This document shows positions 7,778 to 52,308 of a stretch of 64,000 nt of DNA, in pieces. The notes under the pieces are model-generated. The model was not told the DNA's origin and searched no databases. It saw only the letters and a program-made list of their open reading frames with translations. The DNA is from an uncultured Actinomycetota bacterium. Its GTDB lineage: Bacteria; Actinomycetota; Actinomycetes; Nanopelagicales; Nanopelagicaceae. Within the stretch, counting starts at the first letter, position 1; every line of letters begins with the position of its first letter. The stretch spans positions 132,928-196,927 of the forward strand of contig CAVVSA010000001.1 in the NCBI GenBank assembly GCA_963750855.1. The letters run 5' to 3'. A program made the position numbers and the translations under genes.

Positions 7778-9445
7778 CTATAGGTTCGGTTTCTTGCTGA
7801 TCATCAATGGTTTTGAAGTCTCTGCATAGAAGTCGTTTCCCTTGTCATCTATGACGATAAACGCTGGGAAATCAACCACATCTATCTTCCAAACTGCTTC
7901 CATACCCAGTTCGGCAAAGTCGAGAACTTCAACTTTCTTGATGCAATCCAGAGCCAGTCGAGCAGCAGGTCCCCCGATTGAACCCAGGTAGAAGCCACCA
8001 TGCGTCTTGCACGCATCGGTGACGGCCTTAGAGCGATTGCCTTTTGCCAGCATGACCAAGGATCCGCCCTTTGATTGGAAGTACTCGACGTATGAATCCA
8101 TGCGACCAGCCGTGGTGGGTCCGAACGAACCGGAAGCGTAACCTTCCGGTGTCTTGGCAGGGCCTGCGTAGTACACGGGGTAGTCGCGCAAGTAGGAAGG
8201 CATTGGTTTGCCCGCGTCCATGTCAGCTTTGATTTTCGCGTGTGCCAAGTCGCGCGCCACAACCAAAGTTCCCGACAATGAAACGCGCGTCTTGAATGGA
8301 TACTTGCTTAACTCTTTGCGAATGTTGTCCATGCCCTGATTTAGATCGATCTTGACGACGTCTTCATCGCCTTCGATGAGATGGGCCGTCATTGGGTCTG
8401 GCAAGAAGTGGGCCGGCTCTCGCTCTAGCTCCTCTAAAAAGATGCCATCGGCAGTGATTTTGGCTCTGGCTTGGCGGTCGGCCGAACAGGAGACTGCGAT
8501 CGCAATAGGCAAAGAGGCACCGTGGCGAGGAAGGCGGATAACTCGAACATCGTGGCAGAAATACTTTCCGCCGAATTGGGCCCCGATTCCCAACGTGCGG
8601 GTAAGTTTTAGAACTTCTTCTTCCATCTCAAGATCGCGGAAGCCATGGCCTGTATCGGCATCTCCTGTTGTTGGCATAGCGTCCAGGTAGTGCGTGCTGG
8701 CCAACTTGGAGGTTTTGACCGTGTACTCCGCACTTGTTCCGCCGATGATGATGGCAAGGTGGTAAGGCGGGCAGGCTGATGTGCCAAGGGAACGTAACTT
8801 CTCATCCAACCACTGCATGAAACTTGCCGGATTGAGTATCGCTTTAGTCTCTTGATAGAGGAAGGATTTATTGGCGCTTCCGCCGCCCTTTGCGATGAAG
8901 AGGAATGAGTATTCATCGGGGTGATCGGAATCCGCGTAGATTTCAACTTGAGCCGGCAGGTTGCTGCCTGTGTTCTTCTCCTCCCACATATTGATCGGTG
9001 CCATCTGGGAATAGCGCAGATTTAAGCGGGTATATGCGTCATAAATGCCCTGCGAAATCGCGGACTCGTCTTTGCTCTCAGTAAGGACGTGCTGACCTTT
9101 CTTGCCCATGACGATCGCAGTGCCAGTGTCTTGGCACATGGGCAGAACGCCGCCTGCTGAAATGTTGGCGTTCTTCAGGAGATCTAAGGCAACGAAGCGA
9201 TCGTTGGGAGAACTCTCTGGATCGTCCAAAATATTGGCCAACTGCTGTAAGTGCGCGGTACGCAAGTAGTGCGAGATGTCATGAAAGGCGGTTTCGCTCA
9301 ATCGCGTGATCGCCTCGGGGGATACCTGCAGAAATTTCTTATCGCCATGTTGAACTACCGTGACACCCTCGCTGCCGAGGGAACGGTACTTCGTGGTGTC
9401 CTCGCCGAGGGGAAGAAGGTCTGAATAATTAAAAGTTGGACTCAT
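7778..9445 (-). CDS. class I (Fe-S) fumarate hydratase
   Basis: 555 aa with fused alpha and beta domains like FumA/FumB ([15 protein letters not shown]; [10 protein letters not shown]). ATGA overlap with xseB. Confidence 0.95.
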
Positions 9446-11868: not shown

Positions 11869-14800
11869 TTACTCCTCGTTTGGAAGATGCGGGTGCGGAC
11901 CAGCTCCGATATTTCCATAACGATGGTTGGTGATCGAGACACTCTGTTCCAGTAACCAACGTGGCATTTCAACATCTCCACGTTGGGCAATTGAGCGGCG
12001 ATCGACAGAGATTCCCTTGGCCAAAAATTCCAAAACGGGCGGAGTTCCTGCCGCCAACCATCGGACCTTGTCCTTTACTGATATTCGATTGACCAACTGA
12101 TCCTCAGTTTCGATGATCGCGGTTGGGCATTCGGGTATTGGCTGATCGGCGCTGAATTCAATTTTGCTTTTTGTCTCGCCCGCAACCCAGGTGATGTACT
12201 TGATCAGATTTGGATCTTCTGACCCGTCAATTCTCACGACAATGCCGCGCCGAGATGGCAAGTAGCGCTGGTAATTCCGTTCGACGTTGAGGTCAGCAGC
12301 ATCAATGGCCTCGTTGCCGATGCGCGCCCACCACCTTGCAGAACTCTGAACGCCTTCATCGATTGACTCAAGCGGTTCCCATTCGCGCAGGTTGTTGACG
12401 TAGTTTGCTCCGCCTGCCTTAGAAGTCGGGCCGACGCTGCTGCGCTTCCAACCACCGAATGGCTGTCGGTTCACTACAGCCCCTGTTGTGCCACGGTTTA
12501 CGTAAAGATTTCCTGCCTCGACTTGGGCGATCCACTGCTCGCACTCTTTCTCATCGAGGGAATGCACTCCGGCGGTCAGTCCGAAATCAACGGCATTCTG
12601 CCAGGCGATTGCCGCATCAAAGTTAGGTGCAACCATGACGCCAAGGACAGGACCGAACCACTCGTTGCGATGACTCCATGATCCAGGGGCCACACCCAAC
12701 TTCACGCCTGGTGACCAGAGATGCCCGGTTGCATCCAATTGCTTTGGTTGGACAAGCCAACTCTCTCCATCATCAAGGGTAGTGAGGGCGCGCAGTAGCG
12801 AACCGGACGGTGGATGAATCACTGGTCCGACAGCCGTCGAGTAATTTCTGCCCGCGCCGACGCTGAGGCTTTCCACTGCATCTTTGAGTTGGTCCAAGAA
12901 AGAAGGATTCTTGTAGATGTTCTCTTCGACAATTGCCAGACTCGCGGCGCTGCATTTCTGGCCAGCATGACCGAAGGCCGACTGCACGAGATCTTTGACG
13001 GCACTATCAATGTCGGCAGCAGCTGAGATAAGAATGGCGTTCTTTCCGCTGGTTTCTGCCATCAGTCGGATCGCTGGCTTCCATGAAGTAAACATGGAAG
13101 CGGTATCAAATGAACCAGTGAGAATGACACTATCTATTCCAGAGTGAGTAACAAGGTGCAATCCGTCGTCGTCATCTCGAGTGGGAACGAATTGCAGAAC
13201 GTGTTGTGGCACGCCCGCATCCCAGAGTTGGCGAGCTATCTGCCAGGCGGTAGCCACTGTCTCAGGTGCTGGTTTGAGAATGACAGCATTTCCGGCAGCA
13301 AGGGCAGAACAAACGCCTCCCATCGGAATGGCATAAGGAAAATTCCACGGCGGCACAACGAGGACAACGCCAAGCGGCTTTGAGTCGGTGCATTTCTCGT
13401 AAGAATTCAGCGCGTAGAAACGCGCAAAGTCGATTCCCTCGCTTACTTCAGGATCGGCCTCGGCCACGGTCTTCCCGGAATCGCGCGCCATGATCGCGAT
13501 CGTCTCTGCCCGCTCGTTCTCCATCAGGGTTGCGGCCGCTCCCAGAATTCGTCCGCGCCCTATCGGGCCAAGCGCCTCCCACTCATCCACGTGAGCTCGC
13601 GCGGTCGCGACGGCTGAGTCGATGTCTTCACGATTTGCGATGGAGTACGTGTACCACGGTGCGCCATCCACGCTGGGATCCGTGCCCGTTTCAACTTCGC
13701 TGCGGGTGAGAAATTCACCCATGATCTGCAATGGAATTCGCAAATCGTTGCTTGCGTAATGACGCGCAAAGGCGGATTCGAGTTGTGCGCGGAAGTCCGG
13801 GTTGGTCGTATCGGCGTCGCTCTGATTTTCAAACTTGCCGTCATCGAATGCATTCTGCGCATAGTGGCGCTTGAGAGAGTGACGTCGCGAATCGGTAGAG
13901 ATCGTGTGTCGCTCGACGACGGAGATGAGGAATCGACTTTCTTGTTCTTTGAATTTGTCGTTGTCCAGGGCCATGTCAAAGGAGGCCCTCAAATAGTTCT
14001 CTTCGGATGTGTTCTCATCGAGTCGTCGAACTAAGTAGGCAACGGCTGCCGGAAAGTCTTCGTGCCTAGTAACCGGCGTATACAAGAGCACTCGTCCGGT
14101 CTGTCCCGCAACGGCCAATGCCTCTGCATTTGCCATACCTTCCAGCATCTCGATATCGATCTGATTTTCAACCCCACGAGTCTTGGCAACCTCGATTGCC
14201 CAGGCAAGGTGAAACAGGTTGTGGCTGGCGATGCCGATTCGCACGGCGTCAGCGTGGGCAGGATTCAGTGCGACATCGATGAGCCGGGCATAGCTGGCAT
14301 CGACATCGGACTTGCTCTCATAGGGCGCCGGTATCCAGCCGTGGAGTTCGGCTTCCGCCTTCTCCATTGCCAGATTTGCCCCTTTTACCAAGCGAATTTT
14401 GATGGTTCCACCAGAGCGCTCGTGGCGTGCTTTCGCCCACGAAACTAAGTCGGCAAACTCTCCATGAGATTCAGGAAGGTAGGCCTGCAGAACTATGCCG
14501 GCGTTCATGGCTTCAAACTCGGGCTCGTCGAGGAGTTTCTTGAATACTGCCACGGTGATTTCCAGATCGCGGAACTCTTCCATGTCCAAGTTGATGAATG
14601 TTCCGGTCTTGAGTGATTGCCGGTAGAGCAGACGCAGATGATTTGCAACGCGTTCGATGGAGCCCAAGTAATCAATCGTGATCAACTGGCTTGCAATCGA
14701 TGAGATTTTCACGGAAGCGTAATTGACACCGGGCCGCTGGATCATCTCAATGACCGAGTTGAGTCTCTGTGCGGCTTCTCCTTCTCCGAGGACTGCTTCA

Positions 14801-15303
14801 CCGAGAACATTGATATTGAGTTTTGCTTCCTCCCCCGTGCGACGTGAGATGTGTTTGGCGAGGGGATTCTTTTCGGCAGGAAGGATAATTCCATTGGCTG
14901 CCATGCGGACTCGTTTATGGACGACCTTCATCACCAATGACGGGAAAACATATGACAGTGCACTTGCCGCTTTGATTCCAACAAAGTCATAAACTCCAAG
15001 ACCTGAGACACCTGCGGTCTTGGCGGTCCTTCGCAAAGTTTTGGCCGCGTTGCGCATCGAACTCATGCGCATGACTTCATCGGTCAGCGACATGGTGAGC
15101 GCGACGGCGGACGGGTCTTTGAGAAGTCTTGCGAATCTTTTTCTATTTGCCTCATCGTGACGCGTTCTCGTTTTATCCGATTGCGTCAGGAGATTCGAAA
15201 CCAATGCGATGGTCTTATCTGTAAGTCGGTCAATGTCCTCATTAGTTGGAAGCGGATTTGACAGCACTTTCGTCCTTTCCTTAACAGCGTTGTTAGAGGG
15301 CAA
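11869..15303 (-). CDS. putA: bifunctional proline dehydrogenase / L-glutamate gamma-semialdehyde dehydrogenase
   Basis: 1144 aa with an N-terminal PRODH barrel and a C-terminal aldehyde dehydrogenase (FGHAGQKCSAAS, EWFGPVLGV). The start is uncertain: TTG at 15303, or GTG at 15267 with a better SD. Confidence 0.93.
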   Translation of the reverse strand: MPSNNAVKERTKVLSNPLPTNEDIDRLTDKTIALVSNLLTQSDKTRTRHDEANRKRFARLLKDPSAVALTMSLTDEVMRMSSMRNAAKTLRRTAKTAGVSGLGVYDFVGIKAASALSYVFPSLVMKVVHKRVRMAANGIILPAEKNPLAKHISRRTGEEAKLNINVLGEAVLGEGEAAQRLNSVIEMIQRPGVNYASVKISSIASQLITIDYLGSIERVANHLRLLYRQSLKTGTFINLDMEEFRDLEITVAVFKKLLDEPEFEAMNAGIVLQAYLPESHGEFADLVSWAKARHERSGGTIKIRLVKGANLAMEKAEAELHGWIPAPYESKSDVDASYARLIDVALNPAHADAVRIGIASHNLFHLAWAIEVAKTRGVENQIDIEMLEGMANAEALAVAGQTGRVLLYTPVTRHEDFPAAVAYLVRRLDENTSEENYLRASFDMALDNDKFKEQESRFLISVVERHTISTDSRRHSLKRHYAQNAFDDGKFENQSDADTTNPDFRAQLESAFARHYASNDLRIPLQIMGEFLTRSEVETGTDPSVDGAPWYTYSIANREDIDSAVATARAHVDEWEALGPIGRGRILGAAATLMENERAETIAIMARDSGKTVAEADPEVSEGIDFARFYALNSYEKCTDSKPLGVVLVVPPWNFPYAIPMGGVCSALAAGNAVILKPAPETVATAWQIARQLWDAGVPQHVLQFVPTRDDDDGLHLVTHSGIDSVILTGSFDTASMFTSWKPAIRLMAETSGKNAILISAAADIDSAVKDLVQSAFGHAGQKCSAASLAIVEENIYKNPSFLDQLKDAVESLSVGAGRNYSTAVGPVIHPPSGSLLRALTTLDDGESWLVQPKQLDATGHLWSPGVKLGVAPGSWSHRNEWFGPVLGVMVAPNFDAAIAWQNAVDFGLTAGVHSLDEKECEQWIAQVEAGNLYVNRGTTGAVVNRQPFGGWKRSSVGPTSKAGGANYVNNLREWEPLESIDEGVQSSARWWARIGNEAIDAADLNVERNYQRYLPSRRGIVVRIDGSEDPNLIKYITWVAGETKSKIEFSADQPIPECPTAIIETEDQLVNRISVKDKVRWLAAGTPPVLEFLAKGISVDRRSIAQRGDVEMPRWLLEQSVSITNHRYGNIGAGPHPHLPNEE

Positions 15304-15982
15304 CAGCCAGCGTAGTCATGATTGCAATTGTTATTGGCAACGACTGCATGAGGCCATGGAGGGTGGCTACGGTCGAGTGGGGGCCGTGTCGCCGCTGGCT
15401 GAAGGCCCCGAGCACAGAAATGATCACTGGATAGGTAGATAGCGCTCCAGCCACGCGGGGACCCAGAATCGAGGCGGTACCGGTGAGCGTGACGATGAGA
15501 ACAACGGTTACCAGCAGCCTTGCAGGCAACTCCCATCTGGGGATATGTGTGATCTTCGGCTCGACTACATATGCGGGCCAGAATTTGGTGGCAAGTAGCC
15601 AGGCAGATACCAGCAGTGGGAGCAAGACGTAGAGAGATATCTCGAAACTCGTCAGCAAGGCACCCGTTGCGAGGCAGGCGATTGTTCCGGTTGCGAGTGA
15701 ACGTCCCCATGACATTTTCAACGCGGCGACGGCGTAGACCCAGGAGAAAACGATGAGTGCAACTTGTCCCACGAGAACGCCGTGCGCGGCACGAGCTGCA
15801 AATGATGTGCCATCTTGGATATAGATGATGAAAATAAAAGGGCCGGTTGTGAGAGGCAATCCGATCAGGCGCCCGCCGATGCCATCTCCCCAGCGACCTT
15901 GGATGTAACTGACAAGACCTACGAGCATTGGTGCGAGAAAAAGCTTGAGGAAAAGTAGTTGGGGGAGAAGGAGCGAACTCAC
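15293..15982 (-). CDS. hypothetical polytopic membrane protein
   Basis: 229 aa with a GTG start and about 7 hydrophobic helices. Packed between the NSAR gene (1-nt gap) and putA (11-nt overlap). No family recognised. Confidence 0.6.
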   Translation of the reverse strand: MSSLLLPQLLFLKLFLAPMLVGLVSYIQGRWGDGIGGRLIGLPLTTGPFIFIIYIQDGTSFAARAAHGVLVGQVALIVFSWVYAVAALKMSWGRSLATGTIACLATGALLTSFEISLYVLLPLLVSAWLLATKFWPAYVVEPKITHIPRWELPARLLVTVVLIVTLTGTASILGPRVAGALSTYPVIISVLGAFSQRRHGPHSTVATLHGLMQSLPITIAIMTTLAVAL

Positions 15983-15983
15983 T

Positions 15984-17093
15984 CTATGGCGCCGTAATCA
16001 ATTTTCTCGAGGTAGTTATCTCGTCGATGAAATCAAGATCGATCTCAACCCCGATTCCAGGGCCGGAAGGAACTCGCAGTTGTCCGTTCTCCATGACAAA
16101 CGGTGTGGTGATATCTCGATGGTAGTAACGCGAAGATGCACTTGTATCCCCAGGCAATGTAAATCCGGCAAGGGAGGCAAGTGCGATGTTTGCCGCCCGC
16201 CCAATTCCAGTTTCGAGCATTCCACCGCACCAGACCGGAATGTCATTTTCAACGCAGAGGTCATGGATCTTGACTGACTCCAGGTATCCACCCACGCGGC
16301 CAGGTTTAATATTGATGATGGTCGTTGCCTTCATTGCCAGTGCATCGCGTGCGGATTCAAGGGAGGTGATTGATTCATCCAGGCAGATGGGTGTTCGGAC
16401 GACCTTGGCCAACATCGCGTGACCTAGAACGTCGTGTTCATCAAGAGGTTGTTCGATGAGGAGGAGATTGAAGGGATCGAGTCTCTTCAAGTGGTCGGCG
16501 TCCTCGCGCGAATAGGCCTGGTTCGCATCGACCTGCAGAGGAATATCGGGGTAGAGCTCGCGAATCACGCGGACCGGTTCGATGTCCCAGCCCGGTTCGA
16601 TTTTCAGCTTGATTCGCCGGTATCCCTCATCGACATATTGAGAGACTTCTTGCGCCAAGGTGTCGATGGAGGAGGTGATTCCCACCGATACTCCGCAGTC
16701 GATCATCTCTCTGGCCGAACCTAGATATGACCCAAAGGAGATGCCCTCGAGTTTGAGTTGCGCATCCAAGATTGCCGTCTCAACGCAAGCCTTCGACATC
16801 TGATGGCCAAGGAATGGTTTAAGAAGCCCTGCCACTTCTTCGGCACGGATGTCTCCTGCTGCAAAAACTTTCGGTAGCAGGAATCTTTCAATGACATCTT
16901 GGGAAGCGAAGGTGTATTCGGGGGAGTAAAGTGGCTCTGACATTGCCACACACTCAGCCCAACCTTCAGCGCCATCGTGTGTCGTGATCTTCATGAGAAG
17001 CAATTCGCGCTCGTATTGGGTTCCAAAGGATGTGCGGAAGGGTCTTACTAGTGGCAGGTTGATTATGCGAAGTTCCACATCTTTAATCTGCAT
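15984..17093 (-). CDS. enolase-superfamily o-succinylbenzoate synthase / N-succinylamino acid racemase
   Basis: 369 aa with the OSBS/NSAR-subgroup length and motifs (KLKIEPGWD, VDANQAY, LIEQPL, CLDES, IKPGRVGG). Confidence 0.9.
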   Translation of the reverse strand: MQIKDVELRIINLPLVRPFRTSFGTQYERELLLMKITTHDGAEGWAECVAMSEPLYSPEYTFASQDVIERFLLPKVFAAGDIRAEEVAGLLKPFLGHQMSKACVETAILDAQLKLEGISFGSYLGSAREMIDCGVSVGITSSIDTLAQEVSQYVDEGYRRIKLKIEPGWDIEPVRVIRELYPDIPLQVDANQAYSREDADHLKRLDPFNLLLIEQPLDEHDVLGHAMLAKVVRTPICLDESITSLESARDALAMKATTIINIKPGRVGGYLESVKIHDLCVENDIPVWCGGMLETGIGRAANIALASLAGFTLPGDTSASSRYYHRDITTPFVMENGQLRVPSGPGIGVEIDLDFIDEITTSRKLITAP

Positions 17094-41893: not shown

Positions 41894-44800
41894 ATGTTAG
41901 ATGTTAACTTTTTTGATGAACTTCGAATCGGTCTGGCCTCGGCCAACAACATTCGTGAGTGGTCCTTTGGAGAAGTAAAGAAGCCAGAGACGATCAACTA
42001 CAGAACCCTCAAGCCTGAAAAAGACGGCCTATTCGACGAGAAGATCTTCGGACCTACTCGCGACTGGGAGTGCTACTGCGGTAAGTACAAGCGCGTTCGA
42101 TTCAAGGGCATCATCTGCGAGCGTTGCGGTGTAGAAGTTACACGCGCCAAGGTTCGCCGTGAGCGCATGGGTCACATCGAACTTGCTGCCCCAGTTACTC
42201 ACATCTGGTACTTCAAGGGCGTTCCAAGCCGACTTGGCTACCTTCTAGATCTAGCACCAAAGGATCTTGAGAAGGTCATCTACTTCGCCGCTTACATGAT
42301 CACTGAAGTTGATAAGGAAGCTCGCGAAGAAGATATGCCACAACTCGAGAAGAAGTTGGCAAACGATATTCGCAAGATCGAGACCAAGCGCGACAACGAC
42401 CTCGATGCACGCACAAAGAAGCTAGAAGGCGATCTATCTGAGCTCGAAGCAGAAGATGCCAAGGCTGACGTGCGACGTAAGGTTCGCGAAGGTGCCGAAC
42501 GCGAACTCAAGCAGATTCGCGATCGTTCACAGCGCGACCTCGATCGTCTAGAGCAGGTATGGGCACGTTTCAAGAACCTCAAGGTCCAAGACCTCGAAGG
42601 TGATGAGACCCTGTACCGCGAAATGAAGGATCGCTACGGCATGTACTTCAAGGGTGACATGGGAGCCGCTGCAATCAAGCGTCGCCTAGAGACCTTTGAC
42701 CTCGAAGCCGAATACAAGATCCTCAACGACCTCAGCGAGAACGGCAAGGGCCAGAAGAAGACTCGCGCCATCAAGCGTCTCAAGGTCGTTAACGCATTCC
42801 TTACTACTAGCAACCATCCCGCATCTATGGTGCTCGACGTTGTTCCCGTTATTCCGCCAGATCTTCGCCCAATGGTTCAGCTCGATGGTGGCCGCTTTGC
42901 GACTTCGGATCTCAATGATCTGTATCGCCGCGTCATCAACCGTAATAACCGTTTGAAGCGTCTTGCTGACCTTGGTGCACCAGAGATCATCGTCAACAAC
43001 GAAAAGCGTATGTTGCAAGAGGCAGTAGATGCCCTCTTCGACAACGGCCGTCGCGGTCGCCCGGTTACCGGTCCTGGTAACCGTGCGCTTAAGTCGTTGT
43101 CTGACATGCTCAAAGGCAAGCAGGGTCGTTTCCGTCAGAACTTGCTCGGAAAGCGTGTTGACTACTCTGGCCGTTCGGTCATCGTTGTTGGTCCACAGTT
43201 GAAGTTGCACCAGTGCGGTCTGCCAAAGCAGATGGCTCTGGAACTCTTCAAGCCATTCGTAATGAAGCGCCTCGTGGATCTAAACCACGCGCAGAACATT
43301 AAGTCTGCCAAGCGTATGGTCGAGCGTGCCCGCCCAGTTGTATGGGACGTTCTGGAAGAAGTCATTGCCGAGCATCCAGTACTCCTAAACCGTGCACCTA
43401 CCCTGCACCGTCTAGGTATTCAAGCATTCGAACCACAGCTCGTTGAAGGTAAAGCAATCCAGATTCACCCACTTGTCTGTACAGCATTTAACGCAGACTT
43501 CGACGGTGACCAGATGGCTGTCCACCTTCCACTATCTGCCGAAGCGCAGGCCGAAGCTCGCGTCTTGATGTTGTCTTCCAACAACATCTTGTCTCCTGCT
43601 AACGGTCGCCCAATCACAACTCCAACTCAGGACATGGTCCTTGGTCTGTACTACTTGACCAGTGCCCGTGATGGAGAAGTTGGCGAAGGCCGTGCATTTG
43701 GTTCAATCGCCGAAGGCATCATGGCATTTGATCAAGGAACCGTTTCGCTGCAGGCAAAGATCAAGATCCGTCTTGATGCTTCCAACGGTCTCAACGGCAC
43801 CGAATCCGTCACCCGCTCTACCACTCTTGGTCGCGCGCTATTCAACGAGGCACTTCCTGCTGAGTATCCCTTCGCGGATTACGATGTTAAGAAGGCCCAA
43901 CTTGGAAAGATCGTCGAACAACTCGCTGAGTTCTATCCAAAGGTCACAGTTGCTCAGACGCTCGATGCGTTGAAGGAGCTCGGTTTCCATTGGGCATCTC
44001 GCGCCGGTGCAACTATCGGTATCGAAGATGTTGTAACTCCTGCTGGCAAGGCCGCGATTCTTAAGGAATCTGAGACCAGAGCTGAGAAGGTTGAAATTCA
44101 GTACGAGAAGGGTCTGATCACCGATGACGAGCGTCGTCAAGAACTGATCGAGATCTGGACCCAAGCCACGAAGGAAGTTGGTGAGGTCATGGAGGAGAAC
44201 TTCAAGAGCTCACGTAACAACCCAGTGTGGATGATGGTCGATTCTGGTGCTCGAGGAAACATGATGCAGATCCGTCAGATCGCCGGTATGCGCGGACTTG
44301 TAGCGAACCCAAAGGGCGAAATTATTCCTCGTCCGATCAAGTCCAACTTCCGCGAAGGCTTGTCTGTACTTGAGTACTTCATTTCTACACACGGTGCCCG
44401 TAAGGGTCTTGCTGACACTGCTCTTCGTACCGCTGACTCGGGTTACTTGACCCGACGTCTTTGCGACGTGGCACAGGATGTCATCATCCGTGAAGAAGAT
44501 TGCGGTACCGATCGCGGACTCACCTTGCCAATCGCAGTTAAGAATGCTGCTGGCGTATTGGTCAAGCACGATGATGTTGAAACTTCCGTCTACGGTCGCT
44601 CATTGGCCGATGCGATTGTTGTTGACGGCGCAGTCATTGCTGAAGCCGGACGCGACATGGGCGACCTCATCATCGACAAGCTCATTGCTGCCGGTGTTTC
44701 CGAAGTTAAGGTCCGTTCCGTTCTTACTTGCGATAGCAAGGTCGGACAGTGCGCACTTTGCTACGGCCGCTCTTTGGCCGCGGGCAAGATCGTTGATGTC

Positions 44801-45733
44801 GGCGAAGCAGTCGGAATCATCGCTGCACAGTCAATCGGTGAGCCAGGAACGCAGCTAACAATGCGTACCTTCCACACCGGCGGTGTTGCAGGAGATGACA
44901 TCACCCACGGTCTACCCCGTGTCGTTGAACTCTTCGAAGCACGTACCCCTAAGGGTGTTGCACCAATTGCAGAAGCTGCAGGCGTTGTCTCATTCCGCGA
45001 GGATGCAAAGGGCAAGAAGATTGTGGTCACTCCAGAAGATGGCAGTGAGTCAGTTGAATACCCAATCATCCGTCGTCAGAAGTTGCTTGTAGAAGATGGA
45101 CAGCGCGTCAGTGTCGGCCAGAAGATGGTCGTCGGAGCGATTGATCCAAAGCAGGTGCTTCGTATTCTCGGACCTCGTGCAACCCAAGTTCACTTGGTAA
45201 ACGAGATCCAAGAGGTCTACCGCTCACAGGGCGTAGGCATTCACGATAAGCACATTGAGGTCATCGTTCGCCAAATGCTCAAGCGCATCACTGTTCTTGA
45301 GGCCGGCGACGCCGATCTACTTCCAGGTGAGCTCGTTGAGCGTGGTCGCTTTGAGACTGAAAACCGTCGTGTTGTTTCAACCGGTGGCAAGGCAGCCTCA
45401 GGTCGTCCAGAACTTATGGGTATCACCAAGGCATCTCTTGCCACCGAATCATGGCTATCGGCCGCATCCTTCCAGGAGACAACTCGCGTCCTTACCGATG
45501 CGGCACTTTCCGAGAAGAGCGACCCATTGCTCGGTCTCAAAGAGAACGTCATCATCGGCAAGCTCATCCCAGCCGGTACTGGTCTTGCCAGATACCGCAA
45601 CATCCGGGTCGAGCCAACCGAGGAAGCCAAGGCCGCTGTTTACGCAGCCTACGACGAGTACGACTTCACCCCATTTGAATCACAAGGTTCAGGTGAGGCA
45701 GTCAGACTCGATGAATTCGAAGTACCTCGCTAA
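41894..45733 (+). CDS. rpoC: DNA-directed RNA polymerase subunit beta'
   Basis: 1279 aa with the zinc-binding [20 protein letters not shown] and the catalytic [12 protein letters not shown]. Confidence 0.97.
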
Positions 45734-45804
45734 CGGAGATCTAATCTCACGGTGAGTCTTAACGGCCCCTTCACTCCTCACGGAGCGGAGGGGCTGTTTT
45801 GATT
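45545..45804 (+). repeat. direct repeat copy 1 (rpoC last 62 codons + stop + terminator)
   Basis: Identical base for base to 47469-47728 (offset 1924), by manual alignment of both stretches. Confidence 0.95.
45765..45800 (+). terminator. rpoC intrinsic terminator
   Basis: GCCCCTTCACTCC-tcac-GGAGCGGAGGGGC (13-position stem with 11 Watson-Crick pairs, one G-U and one mismatch), followed by TGTTTT. Confidence 0.7.
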
Positions 45805-45813
45805 TTGGGGGTT

Positions 45814-47043
45814 TCAGATTTTGGAAGCGGTCCGACGTCGATGGCGCAATTCGGCCACTGCGTCCGAAATAGACTGCTGGTTAAAGGGTAGTAGCCCATC
45901 GCGCAAATCAACCAATATATGCGACGTAGTTTCGAGTGTCTCATCTAATACTTTTGTTGCCAATTTCTCGCTCATTCCTACAGTTATCCCAAATTCGATT
46001 AGAGACCTTCTAGAGTGACCTATTTTTTTACCACCTATTGTGAGTGCCAGTGATTTGTCACCGTAAAGGAGCGTTGAAGGTAGATCGTAAGCGGGAGAGA
46101 TTTTCCATTCTCCATCTTCGGTGGAAAGAATTGAGACATTTTTTGCATGGAGATCACCGTTTCCCGTTAACCATGCAAAGCAGAATTGTCTGTAAAGTTC
46201 CCTGGCGGCGAGTTTCTGTGATGAGCAAACTTTGCTCAATTCGTCGATGATATTTTCCGTGCTCATGTTGTATTTGTCTGCGGGCCACTTATCAAGTACC
46301 TGGCATGCATCTTCGACGGCTAGGGACAGCGGCTTACCTTGTCCGTCAATTGTGCGGTCAAATCGCGTTACGAGGAGTCCGCTTTTTCCTTCGGAATCAT
46401 GTACTAGCTCGGTTCGAACGACATTCTTTAGTGATTGTCTGGCAGTTTGGAGAAAGTAGTTCTCATTCTCAATTATCAGGGGATAGTCTGGAGACTCCAA
46501 TTTCAATATGTATTGCGAACCTGCTCTTGATGCTGGAAGCCATATTCTTTTGGCTGAGACTTTTTCTTGAACACCTGGGATGCCAACCTTGTCTATTTCT
46601 GCGAATTCATTAAGCAGATCGGCAAACTTGATTTCTTCGAAAGTCTTTTTCACTTCCACTAAGGGACTGGTGGGGCTGTGGGTCTCACCATGAGGGAGTA
46701 TCTTTACATCGCCGACGACATCCGTGCCTATGGCGAGCAAGAGGGAGAGTTCGTCATCTGCTGAAGTCTTTATCGCGCGTTGCAGCACGTGCAGTCTTCG
46801 ACCTTCCGGGAGTAACCCGGCGAAGAATGAGGGTATTCCCCCAGCGGCTACCAGCTTGGGCTCTTCTCTTTTTGGCAATGTGTGTGCAATTTGTGGCAGA
46901 CTCCCTGCGAGGTATTTAGAGGTGTATTCGAATTTAACCCCTTCTTTGGTTCGAGTTAGGTGAGCTGCAAGTTCTGCACCTTTATATACATCCGCTTTTT
47001 GTATTGTGCCTATTTCCTGGACTCCGCGTTTGTTGTTCATCAT
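45814..47043 (-). CDS. hipA: HipA-family serine/threonine kinase toxin
   Basis: 409 aa with a GIPGVQEKVS P-loop-like motif and the catalytic GNGDLHAKNVS. ATGA overlap with hipB. Confidence 0.9.
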   Translation of the reverse strand: MMNNKRGVQEIGTIQKADVYKGAELAAHLTRTKEGVKFEYTSKYLAGSLPQIAHTLPKREEPKLVAAGGIPSFFAGLLPEGRRLHVLQRAIKTSADDELSLLLAIGTDVVGDVKILPHGETHSPTSPLVEVKKTFEEIKFADLLNEFAEIDKVGIPGVQEKVSAKRIWLPASRAGSQYILKLESPDYPLIIENENYFLQTARQSLKNVVRTELVHDSEGKSGLLVTRFDRTIDGQGKPLSLAVEDACQVLDKWPADKYNMSTENIIDELSKVCSSQKLAARELYRQFCFAWLTGNGDLHAKNVSILSTEDGEWKISPAYDLPSTLLYGDKSLALTIGGKKIGHSRRSLIEFGITVGMSEKLATKVLDETLETTSHILVDLRDGLLPFNQQSISDAVAELRHRRRTASKI

Positions 47044-47258
47044 CGTTTCTCAGAGTGGATTTTATGGATGCGAATTTCAAGTCCGAGCGCCTCTAGAATC
47101 GATAGGAGTTTGTCCGTTTTAATGGTGGCGCGCCCTGTCTCCAGATCCCTTATTAATCGTTCGGATACCTCGGCTAGATCAGCCAATTCCAATTGGGTGA
47201 GCCCAAGGGCCTTTCGGCGACTTTGAATAGCTTCAGATACTTGCCTAAATGTCATCAT
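47040..47258 (-). CDS. hipB: HipB-like XRE-family antitoxin
   Basis: 72 aa from the ATGATG at 47258/47255, with SD AAGGGGG. HTH is LGLTQLELADLAEVSERLIRDLETGR. The longer track ORF (to 47459) only translates the operator repeats. Confidence 0.8.
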   Translation of the reverse strand: MMTFRQVSEAIQSRRKALGLTQLELADLAEVSERLIRDLETGRATIKTDKLLSILEALGLEIRIHKIHSEKR

Positions 47259-47269
47259 CGCCCCCTTGG

Positions 47270-47411
47270 AATCGGCAAGATGTTGCCGATTTAAGATATT
47301 GGACCATGAAAGTACCACATGTCGATCGAAATCGGCAAGATCCTGCCGATTTTGGTATATTTCCCACCAAAGGGACCCTGAATAGTTGGAATCGGCAAGA
47401 TCTTGCCGAAT
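47270..47411. promoter_or_regulatory. three palindromic operator-like sites upstream of hipB
   Basis: AATCGGCAA-gatg-TTGCCGATT (47270-91, perfect), AATCGGCAA-gatc-CTGCCGATT (47330-51) and AATCGGCAA-gatc-TTGCCGAAT (47390-411). Spacing is exactly 60 bp. Confidence 0.6.
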
Positions 47412-47468
47412 TGATCTCGAAAGCCAGGTCAAACCAAATCCAGTGACTAGATGGATCACTAACGGAAA

Positions 47469-47728
47469 AACGTCATCATCGGCAAGCTCATCCCAGCCGG
47501 TACTGGTCTTGCCAGATACCGCAACATCCGGGTCGAGCCAACCGAGGAAGCCAAGGCCGCTGTTTACGCAGCCTACGACGAGTACGACTTCACCCCATTT
47601 GAATCACAAGGTTCAGGTGAGGCAGTCAGACTCGATGAATTCGAAGTACCTCGCTAACGGAGATCTAATCTCACGGTGAGTCTTAACGGCCCCTTCACTC
47701 CTCACGGAGCGGAGGGGCTGTTTTGATT
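47469..47728 (+). repeat. direct repeat copy 2: orphan rpoC 3' fragment plus duplicated terminator
   Basis: Identical to 45545-45804. It is preceded by an in-frame TAA (47460-62), so it is not translatable as part of any gene. Confidence 0.95.
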
Positions 47729-47781
47729 CACGATCGAACAATGGATTCAATTCCCTACCATCAAATTTCACTCTCTAGCGA

Positions 47782-48420
47782 TTATTTTATTCGGATGAGG
47801 GAGACCGCATCATCGATCAAAGTTGCGAGCTTTTGCGCGACGGCATAATTCATAACAACTACTTCGGGTCGCCCTGGAAATGTGACAAGAGCCCGATTAA
47901 GAGAAGTTGGATCATATTTCACCTTGACCCCATCCCAATTGACAAAGACTCTCTTGTTTCCACTCCTCAAGGGACGTAGTTGAACTCTGTAAATCTCCAT
48001 ATTTCCGTATGTCGTTATTCGCAAGTGGAATGGAGAAACTGTCGCCGGATTGAAGGTGGAAGTCAAATAATCAATTTGATCTATGCCCCGTCTTCCTACC
48101 AGATGCGTGTAGGCGTCTCCGGGGATCGGTCCCAACCAATATATTGAGTGACTCTCTGATCGCGTAGAATGGATCAATTCTACAGCCGACATAGTTTCAT
48201 GCCCGTTACTCGTTAATTGTATCTCCAAGATCTGCGGAACATGAGAATTCTTGATTTGCACACTTGCGTAAACTACTACAGAGCTGATTAACAAGCTGGC
48301 CATGATAAAAATAGCAATCTTAGATCGGCGTAGAAGAAACCGTGAACTCGAGCGCTCGACGTGCACTACATACGGAGCACCTTCTTGGTCACCTTCAAGA
48401 GATTCATTGGGAAAAGTCAT
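47782..48420 (-). CDS. single-pass membrane protein, paralog family copy 1
   Basis: 212 aa with SD GGAGAG. After the TM helix comes a conserved ectodomain shared with 50619-51326 and 51491-52171 (MSAVELI...IYWLGP.PGDAYT ... RPEVVVMNY). Confidence 0.65.
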   Translation of the reverse strand: MTFPNESLEGDQEGAPYVVHVERSSSRFLLRRSKIAIFIMASLLISSVVVYASVQIKNSHVPQILEIQLTSNGHETMSAVELIHSTRSESHSIYWLGPIPGDAYTHLVGRRGIDQIDYLTSTFNPATVSPFHLRITTYGNMEIYRVQLRPLRSGNKRVFVNWDGVKVKYDPTSLNRALVTFPGRPEVVVMNYAVAQKLATLIDDAVSLIRIK

Positions 48421-48652
48421 GAAGTTCTCTCCTGCTCTATTTTAGAAGTCATTAAATACATACCGGTCTTCCGAAAGCGAATATAGAGTCTGGTGTATTC
48501 GCTTACAGATAAAGTAGCCAAAGGATCAGTGAGTTTCAAGGCAGAACGTGTCAAAGAATCCTTGAATCTGAAATTCTGCTGAATTCCTGATTCAATTTCA
48601 AATGTTGACTATCTTGCCCAATGATCGAGCAAATTGATGCGCACTAAGGATT

Positions 48653-48845
48653 TTGGACAGATTCTCCTCTAGCGAGAGGATAGGTCCGTGGCTCAACATC
48701 GAAGCCTTCTACAATCGCAAGCGGGTGCACTCGACTCTTGCTTACCACACCCCTAGTGAAGTACTTGCTCACTACTACGCGGCGGCCTTCGCGGCAAAGT
48801 TATACCAAACAACGAACGGAGGATTGCCCAGTTTTCTTGACACAG
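48653..48845 (+). mobile_element. IS3-family transposase C-terminal remnant
   Basis: Translation contains IEAFYNRKRVHSTLAYHTPSEV, the end of the DDE integrase core of IS3 OrfB. There is no upstream transposase body. A possible element end ...GCCCAGTTTTCTTGACACA lies near 48843. Confidence 0.55.
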
Positions 48846-48948
48846 CCCAATCAGGCAACTCCTCTCACCAACGAGGGATAGATTCGTATTGATACTCAAT
48901 CCGCATTTTAAGGTGGACAACAACTAGTAAGGCTGTTAAACATACTCA

Positions 48949-50604
48949 ATGACATCTGAAAACCTCACACCAATTTTTCGGCTAAGCGATGAGTACATTA
49001 CCGAGGCCACCATACTGAGCCCGATCGCTGCGACATTTCTTGGCATCCCTGGTTACGACGATCAGTTAGATGATTTCTCGCTGGAGGGCTCAAAGAAGAA
49101 ACCGGAGCTGATTCGCAAGACCTTGGACACTCTGGCGAATATGCCCCCTCAAAATGAGGATGATCGCATCGCCGCCTCTGTCATGTACGAGCGCTTGAGT
49201 TCGGAGTTGGCTCTATTCGATTCCCATGAGGCTCAATTAGTATGCGCAGTAATTGCCTCGCCCATAATCACGATTCGGCAGGTTTTTGAGGTCATGCCCC
49301 ACGAGAGCGCGGTGGACTTCACAAACTTCACCGCAAGGTTGAACGCGGTCAGGGGAGCTCACGATTCGTGGAAATCGTCACTAATTGATCTTGCAAAGAT
49401 GGGCAAGCGCGCACCAAAGCGTCAGGTGAGCGGAGTGGCAGATCAATTAGAGGCCTTCTCAAAAGGTGCATACGTGGGACTCGCGAACCGGATTGATCCT
49501 GAAAGCAAGTATCCAGAGCTTCACACTGCTGCCGCTTCAGCAGATGTATCTGCTGGTGAATTGGGGGAATGGCTAAAAACTTTTTATCTTCCAGATGCTC
49601 TGGATGCCGATGGAATGGGTGCAGCGAGGTATTCGGTTTGGGCAAAGCACTTTACGGGTGCGGAACTTGATTTGCGGAACACGTACGAGTGGGGATTGAA
49701 GGATCTCGAGCGGATCAATAAGCGGATGTGGGAAGTGGCCGAGCAGATCAAACCAGGGGCAAAGTCTCTGAAAGAAGTTGCCGAATTCCTAGATCGCGAT
49801 CCAAAGTACTTGGTCCAAGGATCTGACGTGCTGATCGAGATGTTGAAGGAATTCACTGACGAGGCGACGGCGCAGATGGACGGCGTTTACTTCGACATTG
49901 ATGAGCGGATCAAATTGTGCGATGCCCGCCTTGCTCCTGAAGGCAGTGCCGCGGCCCCGTACTACCAATCCCCGAGTGAGGATCTCTCTCGGCCCGGGAC
50001 TACGTGGTTCCCGACGCAGGGCAAGAACGTCTTCAATTGGTGGCGAATTCCAACGATGTGGTACCACGAGGCAGTGCCGGGCCATCATCTTCAGGTCGCG
50101 ACGACCATTATCGAAAAGGATCGGTTGACTCGCTTTCAGCGGACCGAGGCATGGACAAGTGGCCATGGCGAGGGTTGGGCGCTGTATGCCGAGCGTTTTA
50201 TGGATGAAATCGGAGCCTTCAAAGATCCGGGGCTGGAGATGGGCCATCTATCTGCGCAAGCATGGCGTGCGGTGCGAGTGGTCGTAGATATCGGTCTGCA
50301 CTTGGGTTACGAAGATCCCGATGGCAAGGTGTGGAACTACGAATCCGCCGTTGAATTGCTGATGACCCACGCGCTTCTTGAAGAGGATTTCGCGAAGAGT
50401 GAAATTGATCGATACCTAGGAATTGGCGGTCAGGCTATTTCCTACAAGGTGGGAGAGAGAGTTTGGTTGAGGGCACGGGAAGACGCGAAAAAGCGTATCG
50501 GGGATCGGTTCTCGTTGAAGAAGTTCCACGCGTTCGCGCTACGCCTTGGTCCTATGGGCTTGGATCCTTTTGAAGAAGAGTTATCCAAATGGGACGGCAA
50601 TTAA
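48949..50604 (+). CDS. DUF885-family protein (putative metallopeptidase)
   Basis: 551 aa with a HEAVPGHHLQ motif and typical DUF885 length. Confidence 0.85.
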   Translation: MTSENLTPIFRLSDEYITEATILSPIAATFLGIPGYDDQLDDFSLEGSKKKPELIRKTLDTLANMPPQNEDDRIAASVMYERLSSELALFDSHEAQLVCAVIASPIITIRQVFEVMPHESAVDFTNFTARLNAVRGAHDSWKSSLIDLAKMGKRAPKRQVSGVADQLEAFSKGAYVGLANRIDPESKYPELHTAAASADVSAGELGEWLKTFYLPDALDADGMGAARYSVWAKHFTGAELDLRNTYEWGLKDLERINKRMWEVAEQIKPGAKSLKEVAEFLDRDPKYLVQGSDVLIEMLKEFTDEATAQMDGVYFDIDERIKLCDARLAPEGSAAAPYYQSPSEDLSRPGTTWFPTQGKNVFNWWRIPTMWYHEAVPGHHLQVATTIIEKDRLTRFQRTEAWTSGHGEGWALYAERFMDEIGAFKDPGLEMGHLSAQAWRAVRVVVDIGLHLGYEDPDGKVWNYESAVELLMTHALLEEDFAKSEIDRYLGIGGQAISYKVGERVWLRAREDAKKRIGDRFSLKKFHAFALRLGPMGLDPFEEELSKWDGN

Positions 50605-50618
50605 TCCGCAATCAAAAA

Positions 50619-51326
50619 TTAGCTGATCGGTACCAGAGTTTCGGCATCGTTGATTATTGTCGGCACTGTTTGAGTGGCCGGGTAATTGAGAACAACAACT
50701 TCTGGGTGGTTAGAGAACTGCACAACCGCTTGATTGGGTGATGCGGTGTTGTATGTGACCGTGGCTCCACTTGACAGAGTAATGGTTCTGCCGTTGGCGC
50801 CAAGGAAGGGATGTGGCTGCGAGTCGTAAGTCGCGACGTCACGATAGGTGCTGACATTGACGTCGAAATTATTGAGGTCCGAGGCACGAGTACCTACTGG
50901 ACTGTAGAAGATTTGATCTATTCCGTTCGCGGAACTGCTGTTTGTGTACGAATCACCTTGCCTTGCATTCAACCAGTAGACAGTTCGATTTTCAGCTTTG
51001 ATCGTTTGAACTAATTCTGCCGCCGACATTGATTGGACGCCGGATGAGACCGCGACTTGATTGACCGTCGCCGGGGCATGTGATTGCGCGACTTGAAGTC
51101 CAGTGAAAATGAAAAGTGAGCCGATGATCGAACCAATGAGCAAGAGCCTGCCGAATCCGAAGGGACGCGTTTCTTCTTCCAGGTATAGCGGCTGTTCTAG
51201 TGATGGTCCCTCGTCGTAGGCGACGACTGCGGCTACGGACTTGCCTGAATCCTTCAGAGCCCGGTCAATGAGGTATTGCGGAATGACGACGGTTACGTCA
51301 TCGCGCAAATTACCTAGGGAAGACAA
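50619..51326 (-). CDS. single-pass membrane protein, paralog family copy 2
   Basis: The likely TTG start at 51326 follows CAGGAGG (the ORF is open to 51359). The ectodomain aligns with copies 1 and 3 (MSAAELV...VYWLNARQGDSYT ... HPEVVVLNYPATQTVPTIINDA). Confidence 0.65.
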   Translation of the reverse strand: MSSLGNLRDDVTVVIPQYLIDRALKDSGKSVAAVVAYDEGPSLEQPLYLEEETRPFGFGRLLLIGSIIGSLFIFTGLQVAQSHAPATVNQVAVSSGVQSMSAAELVQTIKAENRTVYWLNARQGDSYTNSSSANGIDQIFYSPVGTRASDLNNFDVNVSTYRDVATYDSQPHPFLGANGRTITLSSGATVTYNTASPNQAVVQFSNHPEVVVLNYPATQTVPTIINDAETLVPIS

Positions 51327-51490
51327 CGGAACCTCCTGATCGGGTATTAAAGTTCCCAAGCCGGGCGGTGTGCCTTACCGGGGAATTCGTAAGCGTGAAA
51401 TGGACCTGAAACTAGTCAAGTGTGGATGGCTCCAGAAGTCGACTCCTCGCCTGTCCCCCATTCAGGGAGGAGTGCTGGTCCTTGGCGGGT

Positions 51491-52171
51491 CTACTGAATG
51501 GAATCCAAGTTCTGTGCATCCATCACAAGGGTCGAAACGGTCTGGAATGCCGGATAAGTAAGGGTGACAACTTGCGGACGGTCTTTAAAGGTGACCACTG
51601 AATGATTAGGGGATGCTGGTCTATAAGTGACCGTCACGCCCCCGACAATCTCGACCGTAGTATCGGGTGTCCCGGAAAGTGGGCGCAGATGCGCATTGAA
51701 GATATTGGAATTTCTGTAAGTCTTGATAATGAGATCCAATTGTCGTGCGGTTTGCGGAGTCGCATGTTCTGGAAGGTATGAAATGACATCCACACCGCTC
51801 ACGGTGCTGTTCTCGGCATAGGTATCTCCTGATAGACGGCCCAGCCAGAAAATCGGTCGTTCTTGTCCTCTGACAACTGATATCAGTTCGTCGGCCGTCA
51901 TTGACTGGGCTCCCGAAGTCTTTAAGAGCGCCTCCGAAACTTCTGGCTTGTGGGAGTCCATTACCTGGAATCCGATAAATGCGACGATCGGCCAGATCAG
52001 AAGATTGACAAGAACAAAGCGTAAAAAATGATTGCGGGCCTGACGTCGATCAGCGCGAATCCGCTGATCGGCTGCTGCTATTGCCTCCTCCATCTCCACT
52101 TGAAAAGAAGACCTCCCGAGCCGCGTTGATGTATCCGACCAGTAGTCCTGTGATGCGTCGAATGTAGTCAT
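51491..52171 (-). CDS. single-pass membrane protein, paralog family copy 3
   Basis: The ATG at 52171 follows GGAGG (the ORF is open to 52225). The ectodomain aligns with copies 1 and 2 (MTADELI...IFWLGRLSGDTYA ... RPQVVTLTYPAFQTVSTLVMDA). Confidence 0.65.
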   Translation of the reverse strand: MTTFDASQDYWSDTSTRLGRSSFQVEMEEAIAAADQRIRADRRQARNHFLRFVLVNLLIWPIVAFIGFQVMDSHKPEVSEALLKTSGAQSMTADELISVVRGQERPIFWLGRLSGDTYAENSTVSGVDVISYLPEHATPQTARQLDLIIKTYRNSNIFNAHLRPLSGTPDTTVEIVGGVTVTYRPASPNHSVVTFKDRPQVVTLTYPAFQTVSTLVMDAQNLDSIQ

Positions 52172-52308
52172 TGAGCCTCCGGGGATGAGTGCTGCCACTG
52201 TAAGAGGAAGTGGCGTACAACACAATCGAGGAAACCCCTATGGATAAGTAAGTGTTTTCCACGCAGCGAAATGCCAAAAGGTCAATTCTTCTATCCAAAT
52301 TTTTGGGA

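Follow-up and report, generated by a model that had tools for sequence, protein, structure and literature searches.

An apparently old hipBA operon flanked by the rpoC terminator and an orphan duplicate of the rpoC 3′ end in a Nanopelagicaceae-like clade

The window, a stretch of 64 kb from a metagenome-assembled genome (MAG) of an uncultured Nanopelagicaceae bacterium (contig CAVVSA010000001.1), contains a hipBA toxin–antitoxin (TA) operon directly behind rpoC, the gene for the β′ subunit of RNA polymerase. The operon is enclosed by the genuine end of rpoC (repeat copy R1) and by a second, orphan copy of that end (R2). With a probability of about 0.6, we read this locus as an old, inherited hipBA operon that lies between the rpoC terminator and an orphan rpoC end, in an arrangement that predates the split of several lineages; the two copies of the rpoC end would have been homogenised by gene conversion and the locus later reworked by the recombination machinery of the host. 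An earlier note on this DNA had read hipBA as an excisable and possibly recent island. A recent or currently mobile element is mostly not borne out, as hipBA is found behind rpoC across the sampled clade with HipA identities of 64–94%, and the similarity of HipA tracks that of rpoC.

A repeat search of the window returns a family of two 260 nt copies that are 100% identical and have a spacing of 1924 nt (coordinates of all features are given in Table 1). No other direct repeat of 40 nt or more is present within the 64 kb, and the duplication can therefore not be due to chance. The repeat starts on an rpoC codon boundary at position 45545 and encodes the peptide NVIIGK...EFEVPR*, corresponding to 62 codons and the stop. 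Its 3′ limit coincides with the base of the terminator hairpin, ending ...GTTTTGATT|. This hairpin is detected in both copies by a terminator scan and has a folding energy of −39.8 kcal/mol (z = −5.2). The stop codon of hipA is located 9 nt past the end of the repeat, such that hipA converges on the rpoC terminator. The 1664 bp between R1 and R2 hold hipA, hipB, three palindromic operators and nothing more. The GC content amounts to about 53% in rpoC versus about 45–47% in the insert and the 1.1 kb that follow it (about 46% for the insert). In its description of the locus the earlier note was accurate: the perfect duplication at a 1924 bp offset is confirmed by the repeat search; the codon-boundary start, the 62 codons, the TAA and the hairpin terminator by translation together with the terminator scan and folding; and the restriction of the insert to hipB, hipA and operators by Pfam and a palindrome search. 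The absence of an integrase or transposase from the insert likewise holds, R1 does complete an intact rpoC in which Rpb1 domains 1–5 are present, and the in-frame TAA just before R2 is where it was said to be. The exact RpoC protein of the window is also present in public collections.

The relatives identified through the RpoC tail of the window are Nanopelagicaceae (Ca. Planktophila and related MAGs), and the closest HipA homologues are nearly all convergent behind rpoC. Seven related lineages have either hipBA or a hipA pseudogene after rpoC. The operon stands directly behind rpoC in L177, the closest relative (HipA 94% identical to that of the window), as well as in L081–L083 (about 85–86%), L085 (77%), L087 (73–74%) and L171–L173 (64–65%). 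In L174 (76%) a vapBC pair is placed between rpoC and hipBA, while L089 retains only fragments of a hipA pseudogene, 6.5 kb from rpoC. The HipA identities (94, 86, 77, 76, 73 and 64%) follow the ranking by rpoC nucleotide identity, as co-inheritance predicts, and from these comparisons hipBA looks ancestral to this Nanopelagicaceae-like clade. Not a single empty site, meaning rpoC without hipBA or its pseudogene, was found among the clade lineages sampled, and both hipBA and an additional rpoC end are missing from about 65 loci of Nanopelagicaceae that are further removed, which fits one old acquisition. The earlier note had named hipBA in all relatives, with no empty site in any lineage, as the pattern that would speak against its reading; this is what we see inside the clade, but not in the distant lineages, which are without hipBA.

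Relatives share the orphan copy as well. Six lineages, the window included, have another rpoC-end copy, or what is left of one, after hipB. Compared with the real rpoC end, it measures 260 nt at 100% identity in the window, 308 nt at 99% in L177, 264 nt at 97% in L087, 157 nt at 89% in L171 (where the coding part is kept and the terminator lost), about 350 nt at about 86% in L085 and 57 nt at 79% in L082, where the coding part is deleted and only the terminator remains. The window, L177 and L082 have homologous spacers between the third operator and the orphan. The junction of operator, spacer and R2 was hence inherited rather than newly made in the window.

Next, four sequences were aligned: R1 and R2 of the window and R1 and R2 of L177. 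In this alignment 246 columns are invariant. A further ten columns differ between the window and L177 yet are equal in both copies within each genome, and not one column has the orthologous pattern in which R1 equals R1 and R2 equals R2 while R1 differs from R2. Several of the shared changes sit in the stem of the terminator. Between R1 and R2 there are no differences in the window and four in L177. An ancestral junction combined with identity within each genome implies that the orphan was overwritten time and again by the rpoC copy, or else that conversion ran the other way and harmful events were removed by selection. This shows that R1 and R2 evolve in concert by intragenomic gene conversion in the window and its closest relatives. 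As the copies are old and subject to conversion, their zero divergence in the window is best read as homogenisation. Of the two causes that had been offered for it, ongoing homogenisation is thus favoured by the column pattern of the window and L177, and recency is not. Concerted evolution by gene conversion is known from, for example, tufA/tufB and the rRNA operons. As in such pairs, the paralogous copies are identical within a genome while genomes differ; unlike in them, one partner is a gene fragment without function that lies 1.9 kb away from its template, and the selected rpoC copy is the master.

These data bear directly on the possibility that the locus is a recent mobile mini-island, formed when a hipBA circle with an rpoC-end segment was integrated by a Campbell-type crossover so short a time ago that the copies have not diverged. 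The perfect 260 bp repeat, the GC content of the insert (about 46% versus about 53%), the fitting geometry and a unitig break at the end of the repeat (see below) would all agree with this. Nevertheless, relatives that are 5–25% diverged have hipBA and the orphan in the corresponding position, joined by a homologous junction, HipA tracks rpoC, no clade member has an empty site, and the two copies of L177 match each other while differing from those of the window. We therefore consider a recent insertion highly improbable. Of the proposed Campbell-type or target-restoring footprint the geometry holds, as it is that of one crossover, or of an insertion restoring its target, in the rpoC 3′ end; hipBA as a recent, mobile island is not upheld.

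Because the window comes from a MAG contig, an assembly artefact is a real concern. Perfect short repeats are a classic hazard for assemblers, and the duplication, or its perfect identity, could be made by a loop through the repeat node or by a strain chimera. The same architecture is however found with non-identical copies (99, 97, 89 and 86%) in relatives, in at least five independent assemblies, and the gene order on either side is collinear with L177 over 9.7 kb. An assembler cannot have invented an architecture that independent assemblies repeat with diverged copies. The misassembly that the earlier note had named as fatal to its reading is accordingly not borne out, and we give an artefact hardly any credence. 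A Logan unitig from run ERR12037365 matches 47699–48661 at 100% identity and stops exactly 30 nt (k−1) before copy 2 would be left, which is what one would expect of reads in which two different sequences continue from the repeat end. Such a break is compatible with an excised circle or an empty site but is not specific for them. Contigs that start inside the rpoC tail were not counted as a sign of repeat-induced breaks, since short contigs are expected to do so at roughly that rate.

The orphan rpoC ends are a fossil record of past exchanges between lineages. The orphan of L085 encodes a tail of the L087 type (..ESAGSG..EVRP*) and differs from the rpoC of L085 itself by 20 synonymous and five non-synonymous codon changes in 85 codons. 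A local duplicate in decay would be expected to gather mainly non-synonymous changes, and the two L085 copies thus descend from two functional alleles. R2 of L171 (L171_R2) and two of the L089 remnants (L089_c2 and L089_c3) resemble window-type alleles more closely than they do the rpoC of the genome in which they lie, and L089_c2 ends in ..EFEHRQ*, as the functional L171 gene does. Alleles of foreign type in the orphans mean that recombination with DNA of other lineages occurred at or next to the copies. Two features expected under recombinase-free exchange are seen: the repeats, at 157–350 nt, are long enough for RecA, and the orphans carry alleles of functional genes from other lineages.

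From this we propose the following course of events. The founding duplication would have arisen by a single, Campbell-like crossover in the rpoC 3′ end or from a donor fragment with homology to the rpoC end on both sides. After this, homologous recombination by the host, of the RecA type and without an element-encoded recombinase, would move, replace and stack cassettes on the rpoC-end anchors. A fragment consisting of a cassette between two rpoC ends would insert at any resident copy by a normal double crossover, unequal exchange would build stacks, and recombination of R2 with the real rpoC end of a donor would import the downstream cassette of the donor together with its allele. The terminator part of each copy would end and insulate the adjoining convergent cassette.

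Alternatively, the arrays could be decayed or satellite integrase islands. The rpoC-end copies would then be attL/attR scars left by a tyrosine integrase with the rpoC 3′ end as its target, an enzyme since lost or acting in trans, and the TA and defence genes would be the last surviving cargo. An identical 3′ edge, ...GTTTTGATT|, is indeed found at 11 repeat copies in eight sources, before at least ten unrelated downstream sequences (the own rpoC end of L089 reads TTGAGT). The stacking, with older remnants pushed outward as in tRNA-targeting elements (tycheposon preprint 10.1101/2020.12.28.424599), the cargo, which is typical of mobile islands, and the independent occurrence in the distant L156 lineage also favour such islands. 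On the other hand, no integrase is found among the annotated genes or open reading frames (ORFs) of about nine related arrays, and a scan of IMG/VR for viral or satellite elements carrying the RpoC tail gave no confirmed match. A tBLASTn search with a single actinobacterial integrase, that of L169/L170, matched only itself. The repeats are 170–350 nt long and have variable 5′ edges, at −262 to −172 relative to the last codon, compared with attachment sites of about 40 nt in tycheposons (10.1101/2020.12.28.424599); varying 5′ edges can be explained by nested deletions at a neutral junction. Moreover, almost no room is left for arm sites, with the hipA stop 9 nt from R1 and the operators 16–57 nt from R2. 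Of the features of an integrase island, direct repeats of the target-gene 3′ end are thus present, while a recombinase in the element and presence/absence among close relatives are not. We regard this origin, the main rival to host recombination, as unlikely.

Two further candidates were rejected. An IS200/IS605-like insertion (TTGAT target) or an integron attC-like insertion at the base of the hairpin does not agree with a boundary after TTGATT, with the lack of an HUH transposase or IntI, or with the core motifs. An origin from complementary DNA was considered in view of the 3′ edge, which lies near the predicted end of the transcript; no reverse transcriptase is seen, and as all copies have the same orientation and locus, recombination is simpler.

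A number of points weigh against an old operon maintained and reshaped by host recombination. All relatives are metagenome assemblies. The search for a recombinase covered 64 kb of the window genome and short metagenomic contigs, and the enzyme may be encoded elsewhere. A site-specific enzyme that works in trans would likewise agree with one exact TTGATT boundary before many unrelated cargos. In place of conversion, the perfect identity of R1 and R2 could be due to the unit having been re-imported recently from a strain nearly identical to this one. Finally, L174 has no detectable rpoC-end remnant despite the vapBC pair between rpoC and hipBA, so that not every insertion leaves a copy.

Table 1. 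Features of the rpoC–hipBA locus, in window coordinates.
Feature	Position	Strand	Remarks
rpoC	41894..45733	+	1279 aa, intact; Pfam Rpb1 domains 1–5
R1 (repeat copy 1)	45545..45804	+	last 62 rpoC codons, TAA, 3′ untranslated region (UTR), terminator
rpoC intrinsic terminator	45754..45804	+	extended hairpin plus GTTTTGATT
hipA	45814..47043	-	predicted toxin kinase, 409 aa; Pfam HipA_C 1.3e-42 (146 bits), Couple_hipA 7e-19 (69 bits), above cut-offs
hipB	47040..47258	-	predicted antitoxin/repressor, about 71–72 aa, helix-turn-helix (HTH); Pfam HTH_3; Joint Genome Institute (JGI) orthologues called at 71 aa
hipBA control region	47272..47409		three palindromic operators TCGGCAAGATnnTGCCGA at 47272, 47332 and 47392; 60 bp spacing
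Spacer, last operator to R2	47413..47468		in-frame TAA at 47460–47462; partly homologous to the L177 and L082 spacers
R2 (repeat copy 2)	47469..47728	+	orphan rpoC 3′ end and terminator, identical to R1; hairpin 47678–47728
Variable cassette slot	47729..48864	-	contains orf212
orf212	47782–48420	-	matches no family; about 45% GC; convergent with the R2 terminator, ending 54 nt from it
DUF885 gene	48949..50604	+	conserved distal anchor of the island in the clade; orthologues flank the arrays in L081/L082, L085, L089 and L177

The DNA that truly varies between close relatives is the slot beyond R2, not hipBA. From rpoB through the final base of R2 (47728) L177 matches the window collinearly, at 92.4% identity, and homology between them resumes at 48865, 84 nt before the DUF885 gene. 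In L177 the slot is occupied by a GNAT gene and a 247-aa ORF, and in other relatives by a MacB-type ATP-binding cassette (ABC) transporter, by TIR and NERD genes or by epimerase and ATP-grasp genes. Unrelated cargo on either side of R2 led us to reject a simple tandem duplication of the rpoC end together with its cargo. That the rpoC 3′ end is a hotspot of insertion is borne out by L089, L085 and L156, in which toxin–antitoxin, defence or metabolic (sugar-use) cassettes are stacked and set apart by rpoC-end remnants. The stack of L089 reads rpoC, Fic, a remnant, a 69-aa ORF with a ClpP-like protease and NERD, a remnant with terminator, Fic with the hipA pseudogene, a remnant, VapBC and DUF885. 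In L085 hipBA is followed by a copy of the rpoC end, a TIR and NERD cassette and then a third, older remnant. In the distant lineage L155/L156 a 9.7 kb operon (ROK regulator, ABC transporter and GH31 glycosidase) lies between rpoC and a 56 nt rpoC-tail remnant encoding PFEAKGSGEATSLDDIEFD*, which is an independent duplication event. On a 1.1 kb contig, L090, a 212-aa ORF without family (5–643) precedes an orphan rpoC end (655–986) on the same strand that is 94% identical to that of the window and has its 5′ edge near −250. L090 is another cassette type beside a window-like rpoC-end copy.

The orphan end may in addition be retained for a function of its own, which would be compatible with the inherited and homogenised operon proposed above. 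Its terminator would insulate the autoregulated hipBA promoter from read-through out of the convergent cassette and end the transcript of that cassette. The hairpin is strong, L082 lost the coding part of its orphan and kept the terminator hairpin, and L089_c3 likewise keeps its terminator. The hipA and orf212 genes, the Fic gene of L089 and the 158-aa and TIR genes of L085 all end 9–55 nt from a terminator copy. Cassettes that converge on terminator copies, together with the terminator-only remnant of L082, make an insulating or terminating role plausible. Nonetheless, the minus-strand hairpin is without a U-tract, and L171 did the opposite of L082 by keeping the coding part and losing the terminator. 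Such a function therefore seems possible but rather doubtful.

Judged by its domains and layout, the hipBA pair of the window is a regular, ordinary member of the type II hipBA family, with a predicted toxin/kinase function. The N-terminal Couple_hipA and the HipA_C domains of HipA, the upstream gene of an HTH antitoxin and the operators are all present. HipA matches HipA/HipT structures in the PDB with E-values down to 1e-20 and retains the motifs GNGDLHAKN and SPAYDL, which we take to be the catalytic and Mg-binding motifs; both align to the solved HipT structure. The TGA stop of hipB overlaps the ATG of hipA. For the operator sequence TCGGCAAGATnnTGCCGA six strand-matches are observed versus 0.13 expected, and L085 has the same layout of three operators at 60 bp spacing with the sequence CCGGCAAGATCTTGCCGG. 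The operon of Escherichia coli K-12 shares with that of the window the order of hipB then hipA, the overlapping stop and start codons, the HTH antitoxin, several upstream palindromic operators and the N-terminal coupling and C-terminal kinase domains. It differs in that the window HipA is distant (E-value about 1e-14) and its three operators have another sequence and a strict 60 bp spacing. Look-ups of the exact proteins gave no match for the window HipA (with two start codons), HipB or the DUF885 protein, while that of orf212 returned a 963 bp unitig.

Since R1 and R2 share 260 identical bases at a distance of 1.9 kb, recombination between them should be able to delete hipBA. That the operon has nonetheless persisted for so long suggests addiction or a benefit, and hipBA may thus resist loss through toxin–antitoxin addiction or through its usefulness.

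Several known systems resemble parts of this arrangement. Streptococcal integrative conjugative elements in fda, rplL or rpsI are large conjugative elements with a tyrosine integrase and short attachment sites, which restore the 3′ end of their target. They similarly restore the end of an essential gene and leave a displaced partial copy, but the tyrosine integrase, the short attachment sites and the large conjugative element are not seen at the rpoC locus. The minimal mobile elements of Neisseria are cassettes that lie between conserved genes and are replaced through transformation and homologous recombination. They have in common with the rpoC locus the recombinase-free replacement of cassettes at a fixed chromosomal site. 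They have no duplicated anchor, whereas at the rpoC locus the anchor itself is copied into the island.

In the tycheposons of Prochlorococcus, direct repeats of a gene 3′ end bound the elements, and newer insertions push older ones outward, such that partial tRNA copies become scattered (10.1101/2020.12.28.424599). In these additive islands anchored on tRNA or tmRNA genes, the nearest known counterpart, cassettes lie, as at rpoC, beside a conserved gene and each is bounded by a direct repeat of its 3′ end. The rpoC locus, by contrast, has an essential protein gene as its anchor, used at the 3′ end with the terminator, and repeats of 170–350 nt instead of about 40 nt. Its arrays are without a detected integrase, and the rpoC-proximal hipBA cassette is conserved rather than transient and has homogenised repeats. 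In Planktophila, one replacement island and the additive, tRNA-flanked islands GI2–4 have been described (PMC12817590). According to PMC8978831, HipAB of Shewanella putrefaciens CN-32 stabilises a 48 kb genomic island that is integrase-driven and resides in a tRNA gene. There, hipAB lies within an excisable, repeat-bounded segment, as at rpoC, and addiction would oppose its loss; the CN-32 island differs in its 48 kb size, its integrase and its tRNA insertion site, and a stabilising role at the rpoC locus is only inferred.

No relevant description of an rpoC-end duplication or an rpoC-anchored island was found in the literature. The rpoC locus is not a new molecular machine. It is an additive island that has the end of an essential protein gene, with its terminator, as anchor, is probably recombinase-free and has a conserved, homogenised first slot. 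One may tentatively go further and view the copies of the rpoC end and terminator as portable, recombinase-free homology anchors (attachment by homology) in streamlined planktonic actinobacteria, with hipBA as an addictive gatekeeper, although we hold this to be less likely than not. Incoming DNA composed of an rpoC end plus a cassette would then recombine with any resident copy and add, swap or stack TA, defence and metabolic cassettes, while gene conversion from rpoC would keep the proximal anchor perfect. This would explain a flexible island in a lineage with few or no classical mobile elements. Nanopelagicales are described as the most abundant lineage of freshwater bacterioplankton (PMC12817590), and how genes are gained and shuffled in their small genomes is only partly understood; the rpoC locus adds an additive and replacement island on the end of an essential gene. 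It also illustrates clearly how a gene and its orphan fragment evolve in concert in nature, and makes two ideas testable: movement of cassettes by host recombination alone, and protection of a repeat-bounded segment from deletion by a TA module.

The surroundings of the locus differ within the family. In the distant loci rpoC is followed by ordinary genes (M48 peptidase, PNP_UDP_1-family phosphorylase and HlyIII) and then by ORF clusters that are read as rpsL–rpsG–fusA by length and order only. In the clade members rpoC is followed by the cassette array and DUF885/pepN, not by rpsL–rpsG–fusA. In L172 (38–3036) an array of hipBA, an rpoC-end remnant, VapBC and an ABC transporter lies between rpoC and rpsL, and the array hence predates the break in synteny or is independent of it. 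In the regions 7786–9221 and 13787–16164, L169 and L170 have a HipA homologue of 68% identity with hipB at another locus, between trkA genes and a DUF3159/dUTPase cluster, with a split tyrosine integrase and a Fic gene about 5 kb from hipBA. The RpoC of L089 (Ga0307376_10000001, 2.16 Mb, actinobacterial-looking), HUW86993.1, is labelled 'Candidatus Paceibacterota bacterium' in NCBI nr. Genomes of Nanopelagicales are reported to be smaller than 1.5 Mbp (PMC12817590), a size that this contig exceeds, and the record may therefore be mislabelled or chimeric.

A few smaller sequence features were noted as well. Rfam, run over 45300–49000, returned just a sub-threshold 'mir-31' on both strands at 47262–47419, which corresponds to the hipBA operator palindromes and is spurious. 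The HipB operator half-site ATCGGCAAG also occurs inside rpoC (the IIGK codons), at 45554–45562 and 47478–47486, 9 nt from the 5′ edge of the repeat. As a microhomology mark of the junction it was treated as chance: seven matches in the window compare with 0.7 expected, but only three of these count as independent once the operators and the duplication are set aside, and the 5′ edges vary from lineage to lineage. Neither orf212, its paralogues nor the 212-aa ORF of L090 has a match in Pfam or NCBIfam. The two paralogues of orf212 lie past DUF885 (50619–51359 and 51491–52225, both on the minus strand) at 33–36% amino-acid identity, and in L081/L082 a 34% homologue of orf212 adjoins DUF885. Between the rpoC stop and the terminator a near-palindrome, CTCACGGTGAG, is present at 45746–45756 and 47670–47680; it is absent in L171 and kept in the rpoC 3′ UTR of most clade members.

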